Source: Candidatus Moraniibacteriota bacterium
GTDB taxonomy: Bacteria; Patescibacteriota; Minisyncoccia; Moranbacterales; DUUL01
Assembly (NCBI GenBank): GCA_041596615.1
Contig: JBFHIG010000005.1
Coordinates: 1,214 to 65,213 of the forward strand
DNA length: 64,000 bases
Direction: 5' to 3'
The position numbers were made by a program, and so were the translations under genes. Position 1 is the first letter of the stretch, and each line of letters opens with the position of its first letter. The notes under the pieces are model-generated. The model searched no databases and had not been told where the DNA came from. It saw only the letters and a program-made list of their open reading frames with translations. Positions 5,419 to 43,105 of the stretch are shown piece by piece.

Positions 5419-6648
5419 TTAATATAATTTTCTTGCCCTGATTGTATTAGGTATTGCGTTTAACTCCTCCATAATAGAGCTTTCTATTTTATCAGCATCT
5501 ATACCAATAACAACATACCCAACATCTGAATCTGTTTGGAGATATTGTTCTGCGATATTTAAATTGTTTGAAGAGAATACTTTTATGATATCCTCCATAA
5601 CTCCTGGAACATTTTTATGAATATGTAGAAATCTACATCTTTGAGAATTTGGAGGAAGCTGAACTCTAGGAAAATTCACAGCACTGGTGGTTGTTCCTAT
5701 GTCACTATAATCAGCAAGTTTCTCAGCAACTTCAAACGCGATATTTTGTTGAGCCTCTTGTGTACTTCCTCCAACATGAGGCGTGATCAAAACATTCTCA
5801 AATGCTCTTAATTCTGAATGAAATTCCTCTTCTTTGGAGGCTGGTTCTGTTGGAAAAACATCGATCGCAGCTCCCAAGATATCACCTTTCTCCAGGGCTT
5901 TTTTCAACTCATCAATGACAATGACATTTCCGCGAGATGCATTTATTAAATAAGAACCTTTTTTCATCTCTGCGACTTCGTTCTGACCAATCATCTCTCT
6001 TGTTAGATCAGTCCCCGGAACGTGCAATGTTACAACATCAGAGATATTCAAAAGCTCTTTCAACGATGAGCACATTTTGGCATTTCCAATAGAAAGCTTG
6101 TTTTCTATATCGTAATAATAAACTTTCATTCCCATGGCTTCTGCTAGAATTGAAACCTGTGATCCAATATGCCCATACCCCACTATTCCAATCGATTTCC
6201 CTCTAATCTCAAAAGAATTTTCTGCACTCTTAAGCCACCCCCCTCTATGAGCTAACGCATTTTTCTCTGGAATTCCCCTCATCAAAAAAACTGATTCAGC
6301 GATTACCAACTCTGCAACACTCCTTGTATTCGAATAGGGAGCGTTAAATACTGGGATGCCGAGTTTTTTTGCCACGTTCAAATCAACTTGATTAGTTCCA
6401 ATACAAAAATTCCCAATCGCAATAAGCTTTTTTGCGCTTTTAAGAACTTTTTCGGTCAACTGAGTTCTTGAGCGAATTCCAATCAAATGAGTATTTTCTA
6501 TCTCCGCCAGAAGTTCTTTCTCTTCTAAAGCCTTTTTGTAATATTTGATGTTCTCATACCCCCTCCCACGAAAATATTCAACTGCATTTTCATGAACCCC
6601 TTCGAGTAATAAAATCTTTATTTTTTCACGCCTAAGTGATAGTGTCAT
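5419..6648 (-). CDS. serA: D-3-phosphoglycerate dehydrogenase (ACT-domain type)
   Basis: The ORF runs to 6678, but M11 (MTLSLRREKIKILLLEG) gives a 410-aa product. Motifs FCIGTNQVDL, GIPVFNAPYSNTRSVAELV, GIVGYGHIGSQ, INASRGNVIVIDEL, TPHVGGSTQEAQ. C-terminal ACT region ends IRARKLY. Confidence 0.9.
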   Translation of the reverse strand: MTLSLRREKIKILLLEGVHENAVEYFRGRGYENIKYYKKALEEKELLAEIENTHLIGIRSRTQLTEKVLKSAKKLIAIGNFCIGTNQVDLNVAKKLGIPVFNAPYSNTRSVAELVIAESVFLMRGIPEKNALAHRGGWLKSAENSFEIRGKSIGIVGYGHIGSQVSILAEAMGMKVYYYDIENKLSIGNAKMCSSLKELLNISDVVTLHVPGTDLTREMIGQNEVAEMKKGSYLINASRGNVIVIDELKKALEKGDILGAAIDVFPTEPASKEEEFHSELRAFENVLITPHVGGSTQEAQQNIAFEVAEKLADYSDIGTTTSAVNFPRVQLPPNSQRCRFLHIHKNVPGVMEDIIKVFSSNNLNIAEQYLQTDSDVGYVVIGIDADKIESSIMEELNAIPNTIRARKLY

Positions 6649-31145: not shown

Positions 31146-31221
31146 ACTTACTATCTTTTAGCTAAAAATCCTATCAAAAAACATCCCTTGGATCAAACTG
31201 GGATGTTTTTAATTATTGGTA

Positions 31222-36200: not shown

Positions 36201-36415
36201 GATTGTAAAAGTTGTTATATTTTCTCCAATAATATCACTAAAGGCTGCAAAGTTGCAAACGAAGTTATATCCTCTCCCTTAATCCAAAGGGGAGTTGGGG
36301 TGGGATATGGTCTGCGCAGGAAACCTTAACCCCTCCTAGTCTCCCTGCCTCGCTCTGGCTTGCCATGGCGGGCCCTTAAAACTAGTGGGAGGAATAACTG
36401 CTTTCCTGCAATTCG

Positions 36416-36453
36416 TTAGATGCATCTATAGAGGTCTCTATAGATGCATCTAA
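36416..36453. repeat. perfect 18-bp inverted repeat with 2-bp spacer (nested palindromes)
   Basis: TTAGATGCATCTATAGAG-GT-CTCTATAGATGCATCTAA. Each arm contains the self-complementary 12-mer TAGATGCATCTA (36417-36428 and 36441-36452). Confidence 0.95.
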
Positions 36454-36532: not shown

Positions 36533-36891
36533 GAATAGTTTAAAATAACGGAGAGATGCCTGCCAGCCCAAGGCTGGTCCGCCTAGGGCGGAAGTGGTAA
36601 TATAATGCTATGCACTATGTTTATATACTACAAAGCAAGTCTTCTGGAAAATTGTACAAAGGATGTACGAGCGATTTAAGGCGAAGAATTGCAGAACACA
36701 ACAACCGAAAGGTTATTTCTACGAAAGCAGGTGTGCCATGGCGACTGATTTATTACCAAGGACTTCTCAACAAAAAAGATGCACTGCGTGAAGAAAAATT
36801 TTTAAAAAGTGGAAAAGGAAGAGAAAGATTGAAATATTTGCTAGAAGATACCTTAAAAACTGAATAGCTTAGAATAACGGAGAGATGCCTG
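36533..36891 (+). mobile_element. GIY-YIG cassette bounded by a 30-bp direct repeat that includes the first 13 nt of tRNA-Ser(GCT)
   Basis: 36533-36562 gaatagtttaaaataacGGAGAGATGCCTG versus 36862-36891 gaatagcttagaataacGGAGAGATGCCTG (28 of 30 identical). A weaker match extends about 12 nt further left. Two GC-rich hairpins and the GIY-YIG ORF lie between the copies. Confidence 0.6.
36610..36867 (+). CDS. small GIY-YIG nuclease family protein (COG2827/YhbQ-like)
   Basis: 85 aa. YVYILQSKSSGKLYKGCTSDLRRRIAEHN...PWRLIYYQ...REEKFLK carries the GIY, YIG, Arg and Glu hallmarks. Confidence 0.85.
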   Translation: MHYVYILQSKSSGKLYKGCTSDLRRRIAEHNNRKVISTKAGVPWRLIYYQGLLNKKDALREEKFLKSGKGRERLKYLLEDTLKTE

Positions 36892-36965
36892 AGCGGCTGA
36901 AAGGGGCACCCTGCTAAGGTGTTGGGCTTTCACGAGTCCCGGGAGTTCGAATCTCCCTCTCTCCG
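36879..36965 (+). tRNA. tRNA-Ser (anticodon GCT), long variable arm
   Basis: GGAGAGA-TG-CCT...AGG-G-GCACC-CTGCTAA-GGTGT-(long arm)-GGGAG-TTCGAAT-CTCCC-TCTCTCC-G. No encoded CCA. Confidence 0.9.
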
Positions 36966-36970
36966 CACAT

Positions 36971-37001
36971 AAAAAACATCCTATTTTGTAGGGTGTTTTT
37001 T
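36971..37001 (+). terminator. intrinsic terminator after tRNA-Ser(GCT)
   Basis: Stem acatccta / tagggtgt (one G-U pair), loop ttttg, T-run 36996-37001. Confidence 0.7.
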
Positions 37002-37027
37002 GATAGGAGTTTGTTACTTTAGAACTT

Positions 37028-38056
37028 TTGATGATAGTATATAATAAAATAATCTCAAAATTTCTCAACAATTATTCCATGGAACCGCAAACTTTTATTG
37101 AAGAAAGGTTAAACAATTTAAACTCTAGTGAACATACCTTTGAACAAGAAAACGCCACCAATTTAGAGGCGGAAATTTTGCGTTTACTTCTTTTCAAAAA
37201 ATTTAGAAAATATTCAGCAAGCGAAGAACTAATAAATCATTGTAAGAAAGCAATTTCGATACAGGTGTCAGACAATAAACCTATAAATATAACTTTTCTA
37301 CATGGAGCATATAAACTTTGGCGATTAGAGGAATCTCCTTGCGTAGATTGGGCGGAATTTTTTTCACTTTTATATTACACTGATTGGGTAAAAGGTATTT
37401 GCAAAATATATAAGCCAGGCGTCTGGTTTGATTTTTTTGTTGATGATCTAATTGTCCCGAAGCTTGATAATATTCCAATGAATGATGTTGAAAAGTATAT
37501 TGAATCATACAATCAATTGATAAATTTTATCAAATTTTATCAACCAAAAAATCTGAAAATGACAATTACACCAGTTGGTTCGAAGTTTAAATCTGCAGAA
37601 GAATTTGAGGATATTTTAAAGCAAAAACTCAATGAACTTAATAGAAAATCAAATAATCAATTACCTAAGCTGACAGATTCTCAGCGAGCAATGATTGAGC
37701 TTAATGTTAAACTAAATCAAACACAGAAAAAAGACCCTACTTGGCAGGAAAAAATATGGCAATTACATAATGCTTATTTGGAAATAAAAAAATCGCTCGG
37801 TTACCATTTTCGTCCTGAAAAGATATTGGCATTCACACAACCTTTGCCATCAGGCAGTACAATATCTGTTGGGACAACAAAATCTTCAATAATGAAATTT
37901 TGGATTGGAGCGGGAGTATTAAAACCAAGGGACACTTCATACCAAGAAGTAATATTCTCTCCATCTCAATTGAAATCAGCAGATTTTCAATGGTTGGATA
38001 TGAAAATAAAAGGTCTTAATGGAGAGAATTTTGAAAAAATTAGAATACTTAAGTAA
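37028..38056 (+). CDS. hypothetical protein (orphan; no family recognised)
   Basis: 342-aa ORF. M18 at 37079 (MEPQTF...) is a plausible alternative start. Coding-like composition, no TM or signal sequence. Lies between the two copies of the tRNA terminator repeat. Confidence 0.6.
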   Translation: MMIVYNKIISKFLNNYSMEPQTFIEERLNNLNSSEHTFEQENATNLEAEILRLLLFKKFRKYSASEELINHCKKAISIQVSDNKPINITFLHGAYKLWRLEESPCVDWAEFFSLLYYTDWVKGICKIYKPGVWFDFFVDDLIVPKLDNIPMNDVEKYIESYNQLINFIKFYQPKNLKMTITPVGSKFKSAEEFEDILKQKLNELNRKSNNQLPKLTDSQRAMIELNVKLNQTQKKDPTWQEKIWQLHNAYLEIKKSLGYHFRPEKILAFTQPLPSGSTISVGTTKSSIMKFWIGAGVLKPRDTSYQEVIFSPSQLKSADFQWLDMKIKGLNGENFEKIRILK

Positions 38057-38198
38057 TTAGCGACTGTTAATCTCAGAAACCAAAGTTCCAACTTCGTCCC
38101 ACACTCTCCGCCTTCGCCACGCTGAAGCGAGGCTATGACATGACAAGGTGCTCTTACAGCTTCGCGAAGGCAGGATTCAGTTTGCGAAAGCGACATTC

Positions 38199-38228
38199 AA
38201 AAACATCCTATTTTCTAGGGTGTTTTTT
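38199..38228 (+). terminator. second copy of the tRNA-Ser terminator hairpin
   Basis: aaaaacatcctattttctagggtgtttttt. It is part of a 49-nt repeat (38199-38247) matching 36972-37020 at 43 of 49 positions. Confidence 0.65.
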
Positions 38229-38346
38229 GATAGCGATTTGTTGTTTTGAGAATTTAAATGTATTATTGAATCAAATATTTAGATGCTAGCAAAAATTGCT
38301 AAAAATAAGGCATTTAAATTCAAATATTAATACCAATAAAAATTTT

Positions 38347-38970
38347 ATGAGAAGCAAGAAAGCTACAAAGGCAAGTATCTTAAAATCATATGTCAATCTG
38401 GCAGAAAAAGCGAAGCTTGATTTTGATTTTATCATATTAACAATCGGAGCTGCTGCTATTTGTTCCTTTGGATTTAAAATGAATAGCCCAGCAGTAATCG
38501 TTGGGGCAATGGTAATTTCACCACTACTCTATTCTGTTGTTAGTATTGGAGTTGCGTCTTTTAAAAAAGATTGGAAAGTTCTTTTGGATGGACTAGCGAC
38601 TTTAACTGCAGGCATAATTATTGCGATTAGCATATCCGCCTTTTTGAATCTATTTTTCCTCACCGAATACAGAACTGAAATAGTTGACCGACTCAGTGGC
38701 TTATCAAGTGATTATTTTTTTGTAGCATTTTTCTCTGGACTTGCAGGAACTTTTACGTTTTTCTGGCCAGAAATTATCGAGGCAATCGCTGGAATTGCTA
38801 TCTCTGTGGCCTTGATTCCGCCAGTTGTTTTAATCGGCTTGGGACTAGCAAACTTCGATTACCAAATCATAGTTCATGGCAGTGCTATTGTTATGATTAA
38901 TGTATTGGGAATTTATCTTGGCTCTCTTTTGATGTTTACGGGATTGCATTTTTTATCTGAGGAAAAATAG
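38347..38970 (+). CDS. DUF389-like integral membrane protein
   Basis: The ORF begins at 38296, but the start is probably M18 (MRSKKATKA). IVGAMVISPLLYSVVSIGVA and several further TM helices. Confidence 0.55.
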   Translation: MRSKKATKASILKSYVNLAEKAKLDFDFIILTIGAAAICSFGFKMNSPAVIVGAMVISPLLYSVVSIGVASFKKDWKVLLDGLATLTAGIIIAISISAFLNLFFLTEYRTEIVDRLSGLSSDYFFVAFFSGLAGTFTFFWPEIIEAIAGIAISVALIPPVVLIGLGLANFDYQIIVHGSAIVMINVLGIYLGSLLMFTGLHFLSEEK

Positions 38971-39099
38971 CTTTACCCATCGTGTCTATAAACTCCAAAC
39001 TCGAAAAGCATCTCTATTCATGGGGTGTTTTTTGGTTTATATTTGTAATAATAAAGCTATAGATGTTATAATTTACAAACTAATAACATAAGCTGCAAA

Positions 39100-39777
39100 A
39101 TGAAATACTCCATCCTTTTTGATTATAACGGTGTGATTGCCAACGATGAACATCTTCAATTTTTAGCGTTTAAAAATATCATCAAAAACCTTGGATTAGA
39201 TTTGAGTCAAAACCTTTACGACAAACATTTCCTTGGGAAAACTGATTATGAAGGATTTTTATCATTAGCTAATTCCCCAGTAATTTCATTCCCTCAAAAT
39301 TCCATTGACGCTCTTGTTAGGGAAAAAACAAAATTATATCAAAAACTCTCTGGGAAAGCAGATATTTTATACCCAGGTGTAGAATCCATCCTTTCCAGCC
39401 TAAGCAAAGTTTTCAAACTTGCCATCATCACTGGATCTTCCAAGGAAGAACTTTTTCCCGTTCTCGAAAGAAATGAGTTGACTCAATATTTTCAAAAAAT
39501 AATCACGGCCGATGATATCACAAAGAGCAAGCCAGATCCCGAGGGCTATCTAAAAGGATTGTCTTTGCTTGGGACGAGTGCTGATAAAGCCCTAGTCATT
39601 GAAGACTCGCCCTCTGGAATAAAAGCTGCTAAGTCCGCAGGAATAAAATGCATCGCAGTGCTCCACACGACCCCCAGAAACAAACTTGCCGGTGCTGATA
39701 AAATAATTGCTAGCATCGCCAAATTAGATGAGGAGTTGATTTTGTCAATAATTGAGAAACCTAGATTAACTACGTGA
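39100..39777 (+). CDS. HAD-superfamily hydrolase (beta-phosphoglucomutase-like subfamily IA)
   Basis: 225 aa. Motif I ILFDYNGVI, motif II ITGS, motif III/IV K...VIEDSPSGIKAAKSAGIKCIAV. Confidence 0.75.
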   Translation: MKYSILFDYNGVIANDEHLQFLAFKNIIKNLGLDLSQNLYDKHFLGKTDYEGFLSLANSPVISFPQNSIDALVREKTKLYQKLSGKADILYPGVESILSSLSKVFKLAIITGSSKEELFPVLERNELTQYFQKIITADDITKSKPDPEGYLKGLSLLGTSADKALVIEDSPSGIKAAKSAGIKCIAVLHTTPRNKLAGADKIIASIAKLDEELILSIIEKPRLTT

Positions 39778-40103
39778 TTACAATAATAAAATTTATCCAC
39801 ACCCTGGTTTGGGCAATATTTGTTTCGGCGATAATGTATGTTTTGTATGCAGGAGTTACCAATACTTTTGATACCCCATTACTGGTGTCTATAGGGCTAA
39901 TTATATTCGAAACTATAGTTTTAATAATAAATAAATGGGCCTGTCCGCTAACTGGTATTGCAAGAAAATACACTTCCGATAGAAATGCCAACTTTGATAT
40001 CTATTTGCCAAATTGGTTGGCAAAACACAACAAATCAATATTTTCCACACTTTTTATTATTGGTCTTATTCTCGTGATTATTAATTTTATCAGAACCAAA
40101 TGA
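39774..40103 (+). CDS. small membrane protein (DUF2784-like CPLT motif)
   Basis: 109 aa, three TM helices, WACPLTGIARKY. 4-nt overlaps with both neighbours. Confidence 0.4.
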   Translation: MITIIKFIHTLVWAIFVSAIMYVLYAGVTNTFDTPLLVSIGLIIFETIVLIINKWACPLTGIARKYTSDRNANFDIYLPNWLAKHNKSIFSTLFIIGLILVIINFIRTK

Positions 40104-40912
40104 AGGATTTAGCAATTCAAATCGTAAACTACAAAACAAAAAAATATCTTGAGGATTGTCTTGATGATGTTTTGGCTGATCTAAAAGGGAATAATTTAAA
40201 TTACGAAATCAGCGTTCTTGATAATGATTCTGGGGATAATCTGCTTGACCTCGAAGAAAAATATTCTAAAGACAAAATTAATTTTTGCTACTCTAGCAAA
40301 AATCTTGGCTTTGGAGGTGGTCATAATTTCCTGGCGAAGAAAGCTGATTCAAAATTTCTCCTGATTCTAAATCCAGATTTAAAATTTATTGAAAAACAGA
40401 CAATCAAAAGACTTTTCTTAGAAATAGATAAGAATAAAAACATCAAAATTGTTGGGCCAAAGGTGATGACAAAAGAGAATAAACCTCAAAGATGGGATCA
40501 CGGGCAACTAAAGGGATTGCTGGCAAAAATAACTCTTCGGAGTGGGAATTCTTATTGGAAAAATCTAAAAGAAGCCTCCTCCGTCGCCTGGGTTTCTGGC
40601 ACTTTTTTGATGATAGAAACTAAAACGTTTAAAAAAATAAAAGGCTTTGATGAAAATTTCTTCTTGTATAAAGAAGAGGAAGATCTGTGTCTTAGGGTTA
40701 GAGATTTAGCTGGTGAGATTTGGTACTTTCCTCAAATAAAAATATGTCATATTGGCTCTGTTGTTGCTAAAAGGTACGAATATATGGAAAAATCTTCAAG
40801 AATTTTCGATGAAAAACATCTAAAAAATAAACCTGGATTTTTGTTTTTTAGAACAATTAACAAAACTCTCACTAAAATTTACAATTTAACAGGGAGACTT
40901 TTTAAAAGATAG
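40100..40912 (+). CDS. family 2 glycosyltransferase
   Basis: 270 aa. IQIVNYKT, VLDNDSGD, LILNPD, VSGTFLMI...GFDENFFLYKEEEDLCLR. Confidence 0.8.
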   Translation: MKDLAIQIVNYKTKKYLEDCLDDVLADLKGNNLNYEISVLDNDSGDNLLDLEEKYSKDKINFCYSSKNLGFGGGHNFLAKKADSKFLLILNPDLKFIEKQTIKRLFLEIDKNKNIKIVGPKVMTKENKPQRWDHGQLKGLLAKITLRSGNSYWKNLKEASSVAWVSGTFLMIETKTFKKIKGFDENFFLYKEEEDLCLRVRDLAGEIWYFPQIKICHIGSVVAKRYEYMEKSSRIFDEKHLKNKPGFLFFRTINKTLTKIYNLTGRLFKR

Positions 40913-41027
40913 CTTTGAGCAGAAAGACACTCTCCTGGTTTTTATATTAGTTATTGTCAACCAAAAATCTTTTATATAAGGGTTTTATATGTTATTATTA
41001 AACAAAGCTAATTTTAAATTCAAAAAA

Positions 41028-41411
41028 ATGAAAACTATTTTAGTAGATGCGGTGAATGCTTTCGTCGATACCGAGGGGAATATTTTTGAAGAAATGCATG
41101 ATTTACTTGAAGAATATCCTAATAATAAAATCATTCTCACTGGTGCTGATGATGAGCAATTCGCTCAATTTGTTTTAGACAAGATGCCCTACGAAGTTTT
41201 CACCCTAAAACATGATCCAGAAAAAACCAACCCCGAATATTACATGATGATGTTGGATAATTATGAACTGACCCCCGAAGATGTGATATATTTTGAACAT
41301 AATCCTGAAGCGGTGGAAAGTGCAAAATCTGTTGGGATAGAAACTTACCATTATGACAAAGATGAAAAAGATTTGGATAACCTGCAAGATTTTTTAAATG
41401 AGAATTTATAA
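41028..41411 (+). CDS. HAD-like small hydrolase (degenerate motif I)
   Basis: Start placed at M14 (MKTILVDAVNAF). Also ILTGADDEQ and EDVIYFEHNPEAVESAKSVGIETY. Confidence 0.45.
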   Translation: MKTILVDAVNAFVDTEGNIFEEMHDLLEEYPNNKIILTGADDEQFAQFVLDKMPYEVFTLKHDPEKTNPEYYMMMLDNYELTPEDVIYFEHNPEAVESAKSVGIETYHYDKDEKDLDNLQDFLNENL

Positions 41412-41433
41412 CCTTGACTTATAAGAAAATTTC

Positions 41434-41477
41434 AAAAAGAATAAGCACCAAACACAAAGCTTGGAGCTTATTTTTTT
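41434..41477. terminator. bidirectional terminator between convergent genes
   Basis: aataagcaccaa / ttggagcttatt (one mismatch), with an A-run before and a T-run after. Confidence 0.6.
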
Positions 41478-41505
41478 CAAAAACAAAAGTCTTATCATCG
41501 ATGAA

Positions 41506-41685
41506 CTATTCGTCTTTTCTTTCAGACTTCCCCGCGAAATAACCTCTGATTTTAATTTTAGTCTTGCTATAAAAATTTTTTCTTGAATCTTTTTGAAAAA
41601 CCCCAATGAATTTGCTTAGAAAAGATCTTGGCGTTCTATAGCCTGGTTTTCCAGGCTTTCCTCCAACTTTTGCATAGTCTCGCAT
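41506..41685 (-). CDS. possible small basic protein (59 aa), below the ORF-track cutoff
   Basis: My manual translation: MRDYAKVGGKPGKPGYRTPRSFLSKFIGVFQKDSRKNFYSKTKIKIRGYFAGKSERKDE. It ends just before the bidirectional terminator. No clear SD sequence. Confidence 0.3.
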   Translation of the reverse strand: MRDYAKVGGKPGKPGYRTPRSFLSKFIGVFQKDSRKNFYSKTKIKIRGYFAGKSERKDE

Positions 41686-41846
41686 ATTTTTGTGTTTTAA
41701 GGATTAGAACTTATCTACCTCTAGTTTATAGGCTTTGACTAAATATATCAAACATCAAAATATTTTCCAAAATAAACATGCGTGCTAAACTTAGTCTAAT
41801 ATTACATTACAACCATCTTTTATAGTAAAAATTATTCTGTGGCCCA

Positions 41847-42518
41847 ATGAAAGTTACGCTCGAAAAAACTTGGAAAAAAAACTTAGCAAAAGAGTTTGAA
41901 AAATCTTACTTCAAAGCTCTATCTGATTTCATGCATAATGAATATCTTACGAAGCAAATTTTCCCAAAACCAAAAAATATTTTTTCTGCTTTTAATAATT
42001 GTCCTTTTGAGAAAGTTAAAGTTGTGATTATTGGGCAAGATCCCTATCATGACTTTGGACAAGCGCACGGATTTTGCTTTTCTGTTCCACTTGGAATCAA
42101 AATTCCTCCATCACTTTCCAATATCTACAAAGAAATTGAAAGTGATTTGGGGATAATAATGCCAAAATCTGGTGATTTAACTTCCTGGGCAAAACAAGGT
42201 GCGTTACTATTGAACGCGACACTCACTGTTGAGGCTCACAAAGCTGGCTCTCATCAAAAAAAGGGCTGGGAAGAATTCACTGACCAAACAATCAAAACGC
42301 TTTCAGAAAAACGGGAGAACTTAGTTTTTCTACTCTGGGGAGTATATGCACAAAACAAAGCAGACTTGATTGATGAATCAAAACATTTGATTTTAAAAGC
42401 GCCACATCCTTCTCCACTCTCAGCTCATCGAGGATTTTTCGGTTGCAAACATTTCAGCAAAACTAACGAGTTTCTTACTTCTAAAGAGCTTAAAAAAATA
42501 AATTGGGAAATAAAATAA
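41847..42518 (+). CDS. ung: uracil-DNA glycosylase (family 1)
   Basis: 223 aa. VVIIGQDPYH, GFCFSV, LLLNATLTV, HPSPLSA. Confidence 0.92.
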   Translation: MKVTLEKTWKKNLAKEFEKSYFKALSDFMHNEYLTKQIFPKPKNIFSAFNNCPFEKVKVVIIGQDPYHDFGQAHGFCFSVPLGIKIPPSLSNIYKEIESDLGIIMPKSGDLTSWAKQGALLLNATLTVEAHKAGSHQKKGWEEFTDQTIKTLSEKRENLVFLLWGVYAQNKADLIDESKHLILKAPHPSPLSAHRGFFGCKHFSKTNEFLTSKELKKINWEIK

Positions 42519-42529
42519 TTGAAATCTAT

Positions 42530-43105
42530 ATGAATAAAATAATTCTAGCATCTAGTTCTCCGAGAAGAAGTGAAATTTTTGCCAAACTTAGATTACCTTT
42601 TGAAATAGTTGCCAGCAACTACAAGGAAGATATGACACTAAAAATGTCACCAAAAGATTTAGCGAAATTTCTCTCCAGAGAAAAAGCACAGGAGGTCGCA
42701 AAAAGATTCAAAGCCCATCTTATTATAGGAGTTGACACCTTTGTGGTATTAGACAAGGAAATCCTAGGTAAACCACACACAAAAAAAGTTGCAAAGGAAA
42801 TGCTTGAAAAAATAAACGGGAAAAAATTGAAGATAATCACGGGGTTTGCCGTCATTAATTCAGCAACCAACAGAACTCTTTCTAAGACAAAGACAACAAA
42901 TGTATTTATCAAAAAGCTATCTTCGGAAGAAATTAAAAGCTACATCGCCACCAAAGAACCTCTTGATAAGGCTGGCGCTTTTGCTATTCAAGGGATTGGA
43001 GCTGTTCTAATCAAAAAAATTGATGGCGACTATTTTAATGCCGTTGGTCTTTCTCTTTTCGAAATAGCGAAAGCATTAAAAAAATTCGAAATCAAGGTTT
43101 TATAA
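42530..43105 (+). CDS. maf: Maf-like nucleoside-triphosphate pyrophosphatase
   Basis: Start placed at M10 (MNKIILASSSPRR), which avoids overlap with ung. Also GVDTFVVLD and DKAGAFAIQG. Confidence 0.85.
   Translation: MNKIILASSSPRRSEIFAKLRLPFEIVASNYKEDMTLKMSPKDLAKFLSREKAQEVAKRFKAHLIIGVDTFVVLDKEILGKPHTKKVAKEMLEKINGKKLKIITGFAVINSATNRTLSKTKTTNVFIKKLSSEEIKSYIATKEPLDKAGAFAIQGIGAVLIKKIDGDYFNAVGLSLFEIAKALKKFEIKVL

Follow-up and report, generated by a model that had tools for sequence, protein, structure and literature searches.

Within the 64,000-nt stretch of Candidatus Moraniibacteriota DNA analysed here (GCA_041596615.1, contig JBFHIG010000005.1, positions 1,214 to 65,213; hereafter the window), a gene of 325 codons and a GC-rich tail lie between an intact tRNA-Ser(GCT) gene and the gene of a DUF389 membrane protein, and are bracketed by two copies of a terminator-bearing spacer that arose by a true local duplication. 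The gene belongs to a large family of the Candidate Phyla Radiation (CPR) that normally sits directly behind a tRNA-Cys or tRNA-Cys-like leader; this leader is absent from the window, where its place is taken by a copy of the spacer found upstream of DUF389. Our tentative reading, in which our confidence falls somewhat short of half, is that a block made up of the gene and a relic tail was inserted between tRNA-Ser(GCT) and DUF389 by recombination of a break-repair type, which duplicated the spacer. The features of the region are as follows (window coordinates, strand, basis of the call in brackets; ORF, open reading frame).

36541–36562, +, partial duplicate of the tRNA-Ser(GCT) 5' end with 9 nt of upstream flank, taaaataacGGAGAGATGCCTG (direct reading)
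36563–36609, +, GC-rich double hairpin, CCAGCCCAAGGCTGG and TCCGCCTAGGGCGGA, ahead of the GIY-YIG ORF (comparison with the consensus by eye)
36610–36867, +, small, stand-alone GIY-YIG nuclease gene, 85 aa (Pfam PF01541, E = 9e-14)
36879–36966, +, intact tRNA-Ser(GCT) (ARAGORN; Rfam tRNA, 52.3 bits)
36972–37006, +, terminator hairpin copy A, first instance of the repeat core (stem CATCCTA/TAGGGTG between an A-run and a T-run)
37007–37078, +, remainder of spacer A, copied from the spacer ahead of DUF389 and since diverged (alignment)
37079–38056, +, gene of a 325-aa enzyme from a CPR-wide family, placed by modelling in a divergent DIT1/PvcA/IsnA branch (homologues, alignment, model)
38057–38112, +, 3' part of a pseudo-tRNA-Ser with T-loop GTTCCAA, 5-nt insertion CTTCG, and acceptor 3' strand CTCTCCG followed by CC
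38113–38198, +, decayed copy of a conserved GC-rich element (76–82% identity over 65–82 nt)
38199–38233, +, terminator hairpin copy B, second instance of the repeat core (RNA fold)
38234–38346, +, remainder of spacer B, ahead of DUF389, the first ~85 nt homologous to spacer A
38347–38970, +, DUF389 membrane protein gene, 207 aa from ATG 38347 (Pfam; length of homologues)

The duplicated terminator spacer

The original prediction, made from the letters of the window and a list of its ORFs, had reported a repeat of 43 identities in 49 positions between 36972–37020 and 38199–38247, and this count was reproduced exactly. Its core, 36972–37006 against 38199–38233, agrees at 34 of 35 positions with the loop included, and with up to three mismatches allowed occurs at these two sites only in the 64 kb (chance expectation 0). 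The possibility raised at the time, that the element might be a generic terminator repeated at many loci, is thus not borne out within the window; since its other terminators (31166–31213 and 39001–39035) have only the generic AAAAACATC...GGGTGTTTTTT look in common with the core, the pair is a true local duplication. Homology extends beyond the core: over a further ~42 nt, identity is ~74% with 3 gaps. The local score there is 17, whereas 897 segments of equal AT-richness from this sequence score 8.7 ± 2.2, and only two of them reach 17. Spacer A, the 112 nt that separate tRNA-Ser from the gene, can be aligned over essentially its full length to the opening ~120 of the 153 nt that precede DUF389; the homology fades gradually across ~110 nt, so the repeat measures ~80–110 nt in total, and its longest exact stretches are 16 and 18 nt. 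The 5' flanks of the two copies score 8 against a chance level of 7.9 ± 1.5, i.e., with no excess homology. The tRNA is not part of the repeat, whose first position comes 6 nt past the point where tRNA-Ser ends (36966).

The discrete, repeat-bracketed block that had been proposed is therefore real as a local duplication with significant flank homology. By ORF list and Pfam, the block holds the enzyme gene as its only ORF, its neighbours are a hydrolase gene, the GIY-YIG gene and DUF389, and the absence of any integrase noted earlier was confirmed. Rfam applied to the part of the window between 35 and 40 kb, GC-rich tail included, matched the tRNA only. In the RNA fold, terminator copy B forms a predicted 12-bp hairpin followed by U's; a consensus scan for intrinsic terminators listed neither copy, probably owing to the flanking A/T runs, which lengthen the stem. 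Inside spacer A lies a promoter-like TTTAGA-16-TATAAT (37018–37045). An independent assembly, Logan contig L001, spans window positions ~37000–42980 with the same gene order and is identical to the window over the tail region 38060–38260.

A CPR-wide enzyme family and its leader

The ORF had been given as 342 aa or, alternatively, 325 aa. It is present at 37028–38056 (342 aa from TTG), and the shorter product is the true one, because all homologues begin at the Met that corresponds to 37079, a position that does not vary among the 42 aligned; the TTG start is wrong. Nor does the description of the protein as an orphan with no recognisable family survive the database searches: a word-indexed search returned 610 homologues in CPR bacteria, and an exhaustive profile search gave 461 representatives at 50% clustering. 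Identity amounts to 62–68% in Parcubacteria/Paceibacteria-type contigs, with which the window protein clusters, though it is also 51–58% identical to the homologues in very many Saccharibacteria, i.e., most of those found there. A Pfam domain or name was present in none of the homologues found. The window protein itself has no PF05141 match at E ≤ 1, and a profile of the 42 family members reaches the PIsnA sequence only at E = 0.28, this weak match covering residues 44–149 and the same chains as the fold matches below. Distant members retrieved with the family profile do match PF05141, so that homology can be followed through intermediate sequences: P0340 scores 29.5 bits, above the cut-off of 26.4, and P0303 and P0374 match at 2.9e-5 and 4.2e-5, respectively.

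Structure searches had been suggested alongside the profile searches and were run with an AlphaFold2 model built on the family alignment (predicted local distance difference test, pLDDT, 90.6; predicted template modelling score, pTM, 0.90). In Foldseek against the PDB, the top eight hits are PIsnA and PvcA chains (E = 9e-12 to 1e-8, TM 0.55–0.68), the best being PIsnA 9dhm/9dh4 (E down to 9e-12) and PvcA 3e59 (TM 0.61–0.68), over ~325 columns and at 15–17% sequence identity; below them follows a weak Rossmann-type likeness to tyrosyl- and tryptophanyl-tRNA synthetases and to cyclodipeptide synthases. Because these fold matches go together with distant members above or near the PF05141 cut-off, the modelled protein is placed in the DIT1/PvcA/IsnA (isonitrile synthase) superfamily, on a divergent branch, and a large, strongly conserved and so far unannotated CPR enzyme family can now be assigned to this superfamily. 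Matches of the enzyme in PADLOC and PHROGs were discarded, being weak and confined to a helical stretch. The window gene is intact, keeps all 67 family-invariant columns and looks like a functional member of the family. Among the invariant residues are R43-K44-Y45, H75-G-A-Y-K-L-W-R82, D118, D122-D123 and K273.

Isonitrile synthases (PF05141, with IsnA, PvcA, PIsnA and yeast Dit1) form an isonitrile or formamide on tyrosine or tryptophan with ribulose-5-phosphate, usually with an oxygenase of the IsnB/PvcB type encoded by a partner gene. The window family shares their overall fold and differs as follows: its hosts are reduced-genome CPR bacteria, its gene is tightly linked to a tRNA-Cys-like RNA, and it has no IsnB/PvcB-type partner. 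Neighbourhoods were compared at 54 loci, one genome per species, mostly from Saccharibacteria with a few from Microgenomates and Parcubacteria, and no conserved partner of this or any other type was found in them or around the closest relatives. ORF clustering across 56 loci showed no neighbour gene recurring in more than 9 of the 54, and the ORFs 3' of the gene in the closest relatives are mutually unrelated. As no partner gene is conserved, the chemistry of the family should not be assumed to be isonitrile formation. To our knowledge, a linkage to a tRNA-Cys-like RNA is not described for IsnA, PvcA or Dit1.

The 54 loci also served as the survey of the leader. In eight of them, and also in L002, a locus whose protein is 65% identical to that of the window, ARAGORN places a tRNA-Cys(GCA) whose end lies 0–6 nt ahead of the start codon; nearly all remaining loci carry, by inspection of the printed upstream sequences, a tRNA-Cys-like sequence at the same place that ARAGORN leaves uncalled (10 of 47 leaders called). 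Family-wide, the tRNA-Cys or tRNA-Cys-like leader ends 0–10 nt before the start codon. The Saccharibacteria-type leader (e.g., L004:985–1077) has the acceptor stem GAUGCGG/CCGCAUC, the discriminator U73, an encoded CCA and a GCA anticodon loop, together with a shortened D-loop that lacks GG and a non-canonical T-loop of 8 nt, and is separated from the ATG by a spacer of 6–10 nt that holds no Shine–Dalgarno sequence. Its cloverleaf is well supported: 97.8% of cells are paired (29–44% in slid controls), 13 of 20 pairs show compensatory changes, and none of 500 shuffles matches this. A covariance model built from the leader (R1) matches directly 5' of the gene in 54 loci with 60–108 bits, and canonical tRNA-Cys genes elsewhere in the same loci, which have a different acceptor stem, score 46–55 bits. 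At the Rfam gathering score, no leader was matched in twelve loci, eleven of them with the Saccharibacteria-type leader, and in L004 the leader was unmatched even at E ≤ 10. The family is thus almost always fused to a covariation-backed leader (L004–L056, L094 and L097) that tRNA finders overlook and Rfam does not contain.

Leader and gene form a tight module. Two such modules each are found in L055 (3238–4307 and 4912–5981) and in L036 (645–1698 and 4913–5981), from which it follows that leader and gene duplicate as a unit; the second gene in both loci is a diverged paralogue in which HGAYKLWR has become FGGNKLWH. Saccharibacteria-type modules also occur in metagenome-assembled genomes (MAGs) labelled Clostridiaceae, Limnocylindrales, Gammaproteobacteria or Nevskiaceae (L011, L012, L026, L028, L037, L049 and L051), which are probably mis-binned CPR contigs.

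The window has no leader. Run with filters off, R1 matches only the three genuine tRNAs of the window and finds no leader remnant 5' of the gene. Among relatives, tRNA-Cys abuts the ATG in L094/L095 and in L097, only the 3' half of the tRNA is kept in L096, the closest relative (67%), and in L003 the 5' end is cut off by a fragment of a reverse transcriptase gene of the diversity-generating retroelement (DGR) type. The leader has thus been eroded repeatedly in the subclade of the window gene, and since the closest relatives tolerate its loss, this argues that it is not indispensable in cis. In L003 (5560–6936, Paceibacteria), the enzyme gene lacks its first ~30 codons and is fused in frame to the reverse transcriptase fragment; a bAvd gene lies immediately upstream, and downstream of the truncated gene there is an ORF of 59 aa that resembles AbrB.

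In the family at large, leader and gene would be co-transcribed, and 3' processing of the tRNA would free a nearly leaderless mRNA; this is suggested by the abutment of the leader on the start codon and by analogy with mitochondrial tRNA punctuation. Such punctuation and the t-elements of plant mitochondria are tRNA-like processing signals, and the family resembles them in having a tRNA or tRNA-like structure 0–10 nt before the start codon and no Shine–Dalgarno sequence, but differs in that it lies on a bacterial chromosome, concerns one gene family and always involves a Cys-type tRNA; the likeness does not apply to the leaderless copy in the window. The conserved anticodon and U73 suggest a role for the leader beyond that of a processing signal. 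Cysteinyl-tRNA synthetase needs both features, U73 and GCA, in other bacteria, and because GCA, U73 and CCA are kept while the elbow is lost, one may speculate that the RNA is charged as well and serves the enzyme. In Staphylococcus, non-proteinogenic tRNA-Gly isoacceptors serve cell-wall synthesis. The Saccharibacteria-type leader is alike in that the acceptor stem, U73, CCA and GCA are kept and the GG of the D-loop and the canonical T-loop are lost, with a canonical tRNA-Cys present elsewhere in the same loci, which would be the pattern expected for a tRNA retained for non-ribosomal use; it differs in being fused to an mRNA and not a separate tRNA gene. A long shot that we nevertheless put forward is that the family is one half of an undescribed two-part CPR system, a non-ribosomal tRNA-Cys-like RNA with a co-transcribed PvcA/IsnA-like enzyme. 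In such a system the enzyme may use the Cys-charged RNA as substrate or cofactor, e.g., for modification of the alpha-amino group of the esterified cysteine, tRNA processing may also free the leaderless mRNA, and the window copy may be a variant that has parted from its RNA and come under the control of an ordinary promoter. Cultured Saccharibacteria carry the module, and the leads given by the enzyme family, its leader and the GC-rich element described below, which bear on CPR gene expression without Shine–Dalgarno leaders and on possible tRNA-dependent chemistry, are testable in them.

GIY-YIG cassette material on both sides of tRNA-Ser(GCT)

The GC-rich segment at the end of the block was found as originally described. 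Its GC content is 0.48–0.54 over 38050–38199 (0.35 window-wide), and the palindrome cttcgcgaag (38160–38169) and the complementary gccttcgc (38110–38117) and gcgaaggc (38164–38171) are all present and paired in the minimum-free-energy fold, where they make up the closing helix of a conserved GC-rich element. It had been regarded as the end of an insert of unknown kind; judged by sequence comparison, it is instead a relic that combines a decayed 3' part of a pseudo-tRNA-Ser with the leader of a GIY-YIG cassette, an arrangement common to L002 and L065. The first clue was a segment 3' of the L002 homologue to which the tail is 85% identical over 53 nt. Other copies of the tail, a search for which had been recommended, were sought by scanning metagenome contigs for exact matches to a pattern taken from the core common to both, which yielded 32 loci (L062–L093) in 24 unique contexts; the pattern held 7 nt of the tRNA-Ser acceptor end, so that the association with tRNA is partly built in, the remainder of the pattern being element sequence. 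In 19 of the 24 contexts the motif forms the final bases of an intact tRNA-Ser, with all four isoacceptors (GCT, GGA, TGA and CGA) represented, and the tRNA is followed by a nearly invariant GC-rich element of ~65 nt (CCTTCGCCACGCTGAAGCGTGGCTACGGCGTGACGAAGTCCGCC...CGCGAAAGCGGGAT; e.g., L085:3299–3781), within which covariation is sparse. A small GIY-YIG ORF lies 69–187 nt downstream in 15 contexts, often followed by a second tRNA-Ser; the element sometimes occurs in tandem units and sometimes without an ORF. A conserved GC-rich element thus links small GIY-YIG genes to the 3' ends of four tRNA-Ser isoacceptors.

Positions 38097–38183 of the window are 76–82% identical to the elements of L063, L065, L066, L068, L071, L085 and L087, the final ~20 nt of the window element being partly repeated. 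The pseudo-tRNA-Ser has a 5-nt insertion in its T-loop, a derived feature common to the window, L002 and L065; L002 retains a full-length pseudo-tRNA, and L065 retains an intact GIY-YIG ORF and has no enzyme gene. In the tail of the window, there is no intact tRNA-Ser (uncalled by ARAGORN) and no GIY-YIG ORF before terminator copy B, which starts where this ORF would be expected. At L002 the order is tRNA-Ser(GGA), tRNA-Cys, the enzyme gene, an extra ORF, the pseudo-tRNA-Ser/GC relic and a terminator, and the relic is thus an old neighbour of the gene. Two other identities of the tail were considered and rejected: a new structured RNA, given that the 32 metagenome matches show a tRNA-Ser end and a cassette leader, and a recent, decayed duplicate of tRNA-Ser(GCT), given the T-loop insertion common with L002 and L065.

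On the other side of tRNA-Ser(GCT), the GIY-YIG cassette is bracketed by a direct repeat with 21 of 22 matches (taRaataacGGAGAGATGCCTG, 36541–36562 versus 36871–36892), which consists of the first 13 nt of tRNA-Ser(GCT) and 9 nt of its upstream flank. By-eye comparison with the consensus element makes the double hairpin at 36563–36609 a variant of the GC-rich cassette leader, and the GIY-YIG protein has weak matches to homing-endonuclease families in PHROGs. Both flanks of the tRNA therefore carry GIY-YIG-cassette material, in line with the earlier remark that this one tRNA gene is hit on both sides. As the GIY-YIG cassette, too, is bracketed by a direct repeat of target sequence, the locus has been hit twice by an event of the kind that combines an insert with a target duplication. 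The tRNA 5' fragment (13 nt, from 36550) and the 3' pseudo-tRNA (from 38057) were also considered as the two parts of one split tRNA; this was rejected, since the 5' fragment and the 9 nt flanking it reproduce the live tRNA's own 5' region with 21 of 22 matches.

Free-standing GIY-YIG homing-endonuclease cassettes are known, e.g., as the seg genes of phage T4. The cassettes described here are similar in that a small ORF occupies an intergenic cassette whose target, the tRNA-Ser 3' end, is conserved, and in that a conserved leader recurs in many genomes with ORF-less relics among them; they differ in that the protein is a bare catalytic domain of 85 aa with no recognisable DNA-binding domain, and in that only a relic of the leader is left in the tail of the window. 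After searches of Rfam, Pfam, NCBIfam and the literature, the tRNA-Ser-linked GC-rich element with its GIY-YIG genes, the tRNA-Cys-like leader, and the PvcA/IsnA placement of the enzyme family all appear to be undescribed; literature searches for GIY-YIG cassettes at tRNA-Ser in CPR bacteria, for the leader, and for PvcA-like genes in Patescibacteria found nothing.

Possible insertion of a block and other explanations

The original prediction had named two comparisons that bear on an insertion. The enzyme ORF is not universally conserved at this position: the five closest relatives (63–67% identity) are all in different neighbourhoods, and in every other locus examined the gene again has a different neighbourhood, normally right behind the tRNA-Cys(-like) element. 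Comparison of the tRNA-Ser(GCT) neighbourhood, carried out as a search for an empty site via DUF389, gave a mixed result. In L058, whose DUF389 is 67% identical, tRNA-Ser(GCT) lies 136 nt from DUF389 with no enzyme gene between them, as would be expected of a site before insertion, but the tRNA is inverted; the closest DUF389 homologues are only 59–67% identical, and their contigs other than L058 are not syntenic, so that L058 alone is suggestive. L058 also shows (5480–5860) tRNA-Ser(GCT) on the opposite strand followed by the GC-rich element and a truncated GIY-YIG start (ATGTATTATGTTTATATATTA...TAG).

Insertion of the block is favoured because the context of the gene is ever-changing and because L058 links tRNA-Ser(GCT) and DUF389 without it. 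The region would then be a recombination scar in a tRNA-Ser/GIY-YIG hot spot of a CPR (Parcubacteria-like) genome. The moved block would comprise the enzyme gene, the pseudo-tRNA-Ser relic and the GIY-YIG-cassette leader, now between tRNA-Ser(GCT) and DUF389, and the event would have duplicated the tRNA-Ser–DUF389 spacer so that a terminator and promoter-like module came to stand ahead of both the gene and DUF389. Two adjacent inserts with long target duplications point to recombination or break repair in a hot spot and not to an integrase. Without an element-encoded integrase, the block would have come in during repair of a double-strand break or, as a copy, through a single crossover; a break may have been made by the resident GIY-YIG nuclease. 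With the leader gone, the duplicated spacer would supply a sigma-70-like promoter in its stead, and the window gene would most likely be transcribed from this promoter-like spacer and terminated at copy B. Read in this way, the locus is a modest case of small CPR genomes reshuffling genes around tRNAs without integrases, with two neighbouring inserts, each within long target duplications and both tied to GIY-YIG-cassette material.

Several observations weigh against insertion. The flanking repeat alone cannot tell whether the block or the repeat unit moved, and no empty site was seen in a close relative, the nearest DUF389 homologues being at most 67% identical and the tRNA of L058 being inverted. 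The gene has a GC content of 0.31 (0.24 at third codon positions), like its neighbours, and thus no compositional sign of recent foreign origin. The order in L002 could mean that the arrangement is ancestral and was not inserted. A core at 97% identity with flanks at ~74% suggests an old event with the terminator under selection, so that the junctions no longer reveal the mechanism. Promoter-like matches are at shuffle level (13 sites versus 10.5 ± 3.2), and as L001 begins inside copy A, ~79 nt before the gene, the junction between tRNA-Ser and the gene is seen in one assembly only.

Part of this evidence could equally be accommodated if the gene never moved. On such a view the order is ancestral, a copy of the downstream spacer replaced the tRNA-Cys-like leader in situ, and the 1.2-kb insert of the original prediction was never an insert; we regard this as on the unlikely side, though worth serious weight. 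It would account for the same order in L002, one extra ORF aside, for the alignment of spacer A with spacer B almost to the ATG, exactly where the leader would end, for the recurrent erosion of the leader in the closest relatives L096 and L003, and for a gene composition like that of the neighbours. Against it stand the different isoacceptors (GCT in the window, GGA in L002) and the fact that all other flanking genes differ between the two; moreover, a precise copy of ~110 nt into a leader site of ~75–125 nt without flanking homology is mechanistically awkward, and L058 links tRNA-Ser(GCT) to DUF389 without the gene.

The duplicated flank 3' of a tRNA had originally been called the classic signature of site-specific integration, with a relic as one option, i.e., what is left of an element that entered at an attachment (att) site downstream of tRNA-Ser, duplicated the att core and was afterwards stripped of its integrase and of nearly all other cargo. 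The likeness to integrase-type tRNA islands lies in a block between direct repeats of tens of nt (here 35–50 nt, an att-like length) that adjoin a tRNA gene, and in patchy cargo, the contexts of the gene varying across the family. We nonetheless consider this origin very unlikely: neither the block nor its surroundings encode an integrase or other recombinase (ORF list, Pfam), the repeat starts 6 nt past the tRNA and excludes its 3' end, unlike what is seen with tRNA-targeting integrases, and it consists of a terminator and promoter-like spacer whose homology fades over ~110 nt with no core edge. The block measures 1.2 kb and contains one housekeeping-like gene and a relic that is also its neighbour in L002, and neither PHROGs nor PADLOC gave matches of any meaning. 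That no event took place at all, the terminators being convergent or dispersed or the arrangement being an assembly artefact of a MAG, is barely credible. The terminators of this genome do share the generic AAAAACATC...GGGTGTTTTTT form, and the independent contig L001 does break inside copy A, but 34 of 35 identities with the loop included, significant flank homology and only two copies in 64 kb, 1.2 kb apart, speak for a duplication; L001 is identical at 38060–38260 and keeps the same gene order to ~42,980, and the longest exact repeats, 16 and 18 nt, fall below the k-mer lengths customary in assembly, which would make a repeat-induced chimera unlikely.

Two minor observations concern the neighbourhood. 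In the public record (P0121), DUF389 starts at TTG 38296 and has 224 aa; the start was set here at ATG 38347 because the close homologues are all 207 aa long. Between the hydrolase gene and the GIY-YIG cassette, a perfect inverted repeat of 18 bp with a 2-nt spacer (ttagatgcatctatagag gt ctctatagatgcatctaa) at 36416–36453 adjoins a GC-rich patch at 36270–36400.

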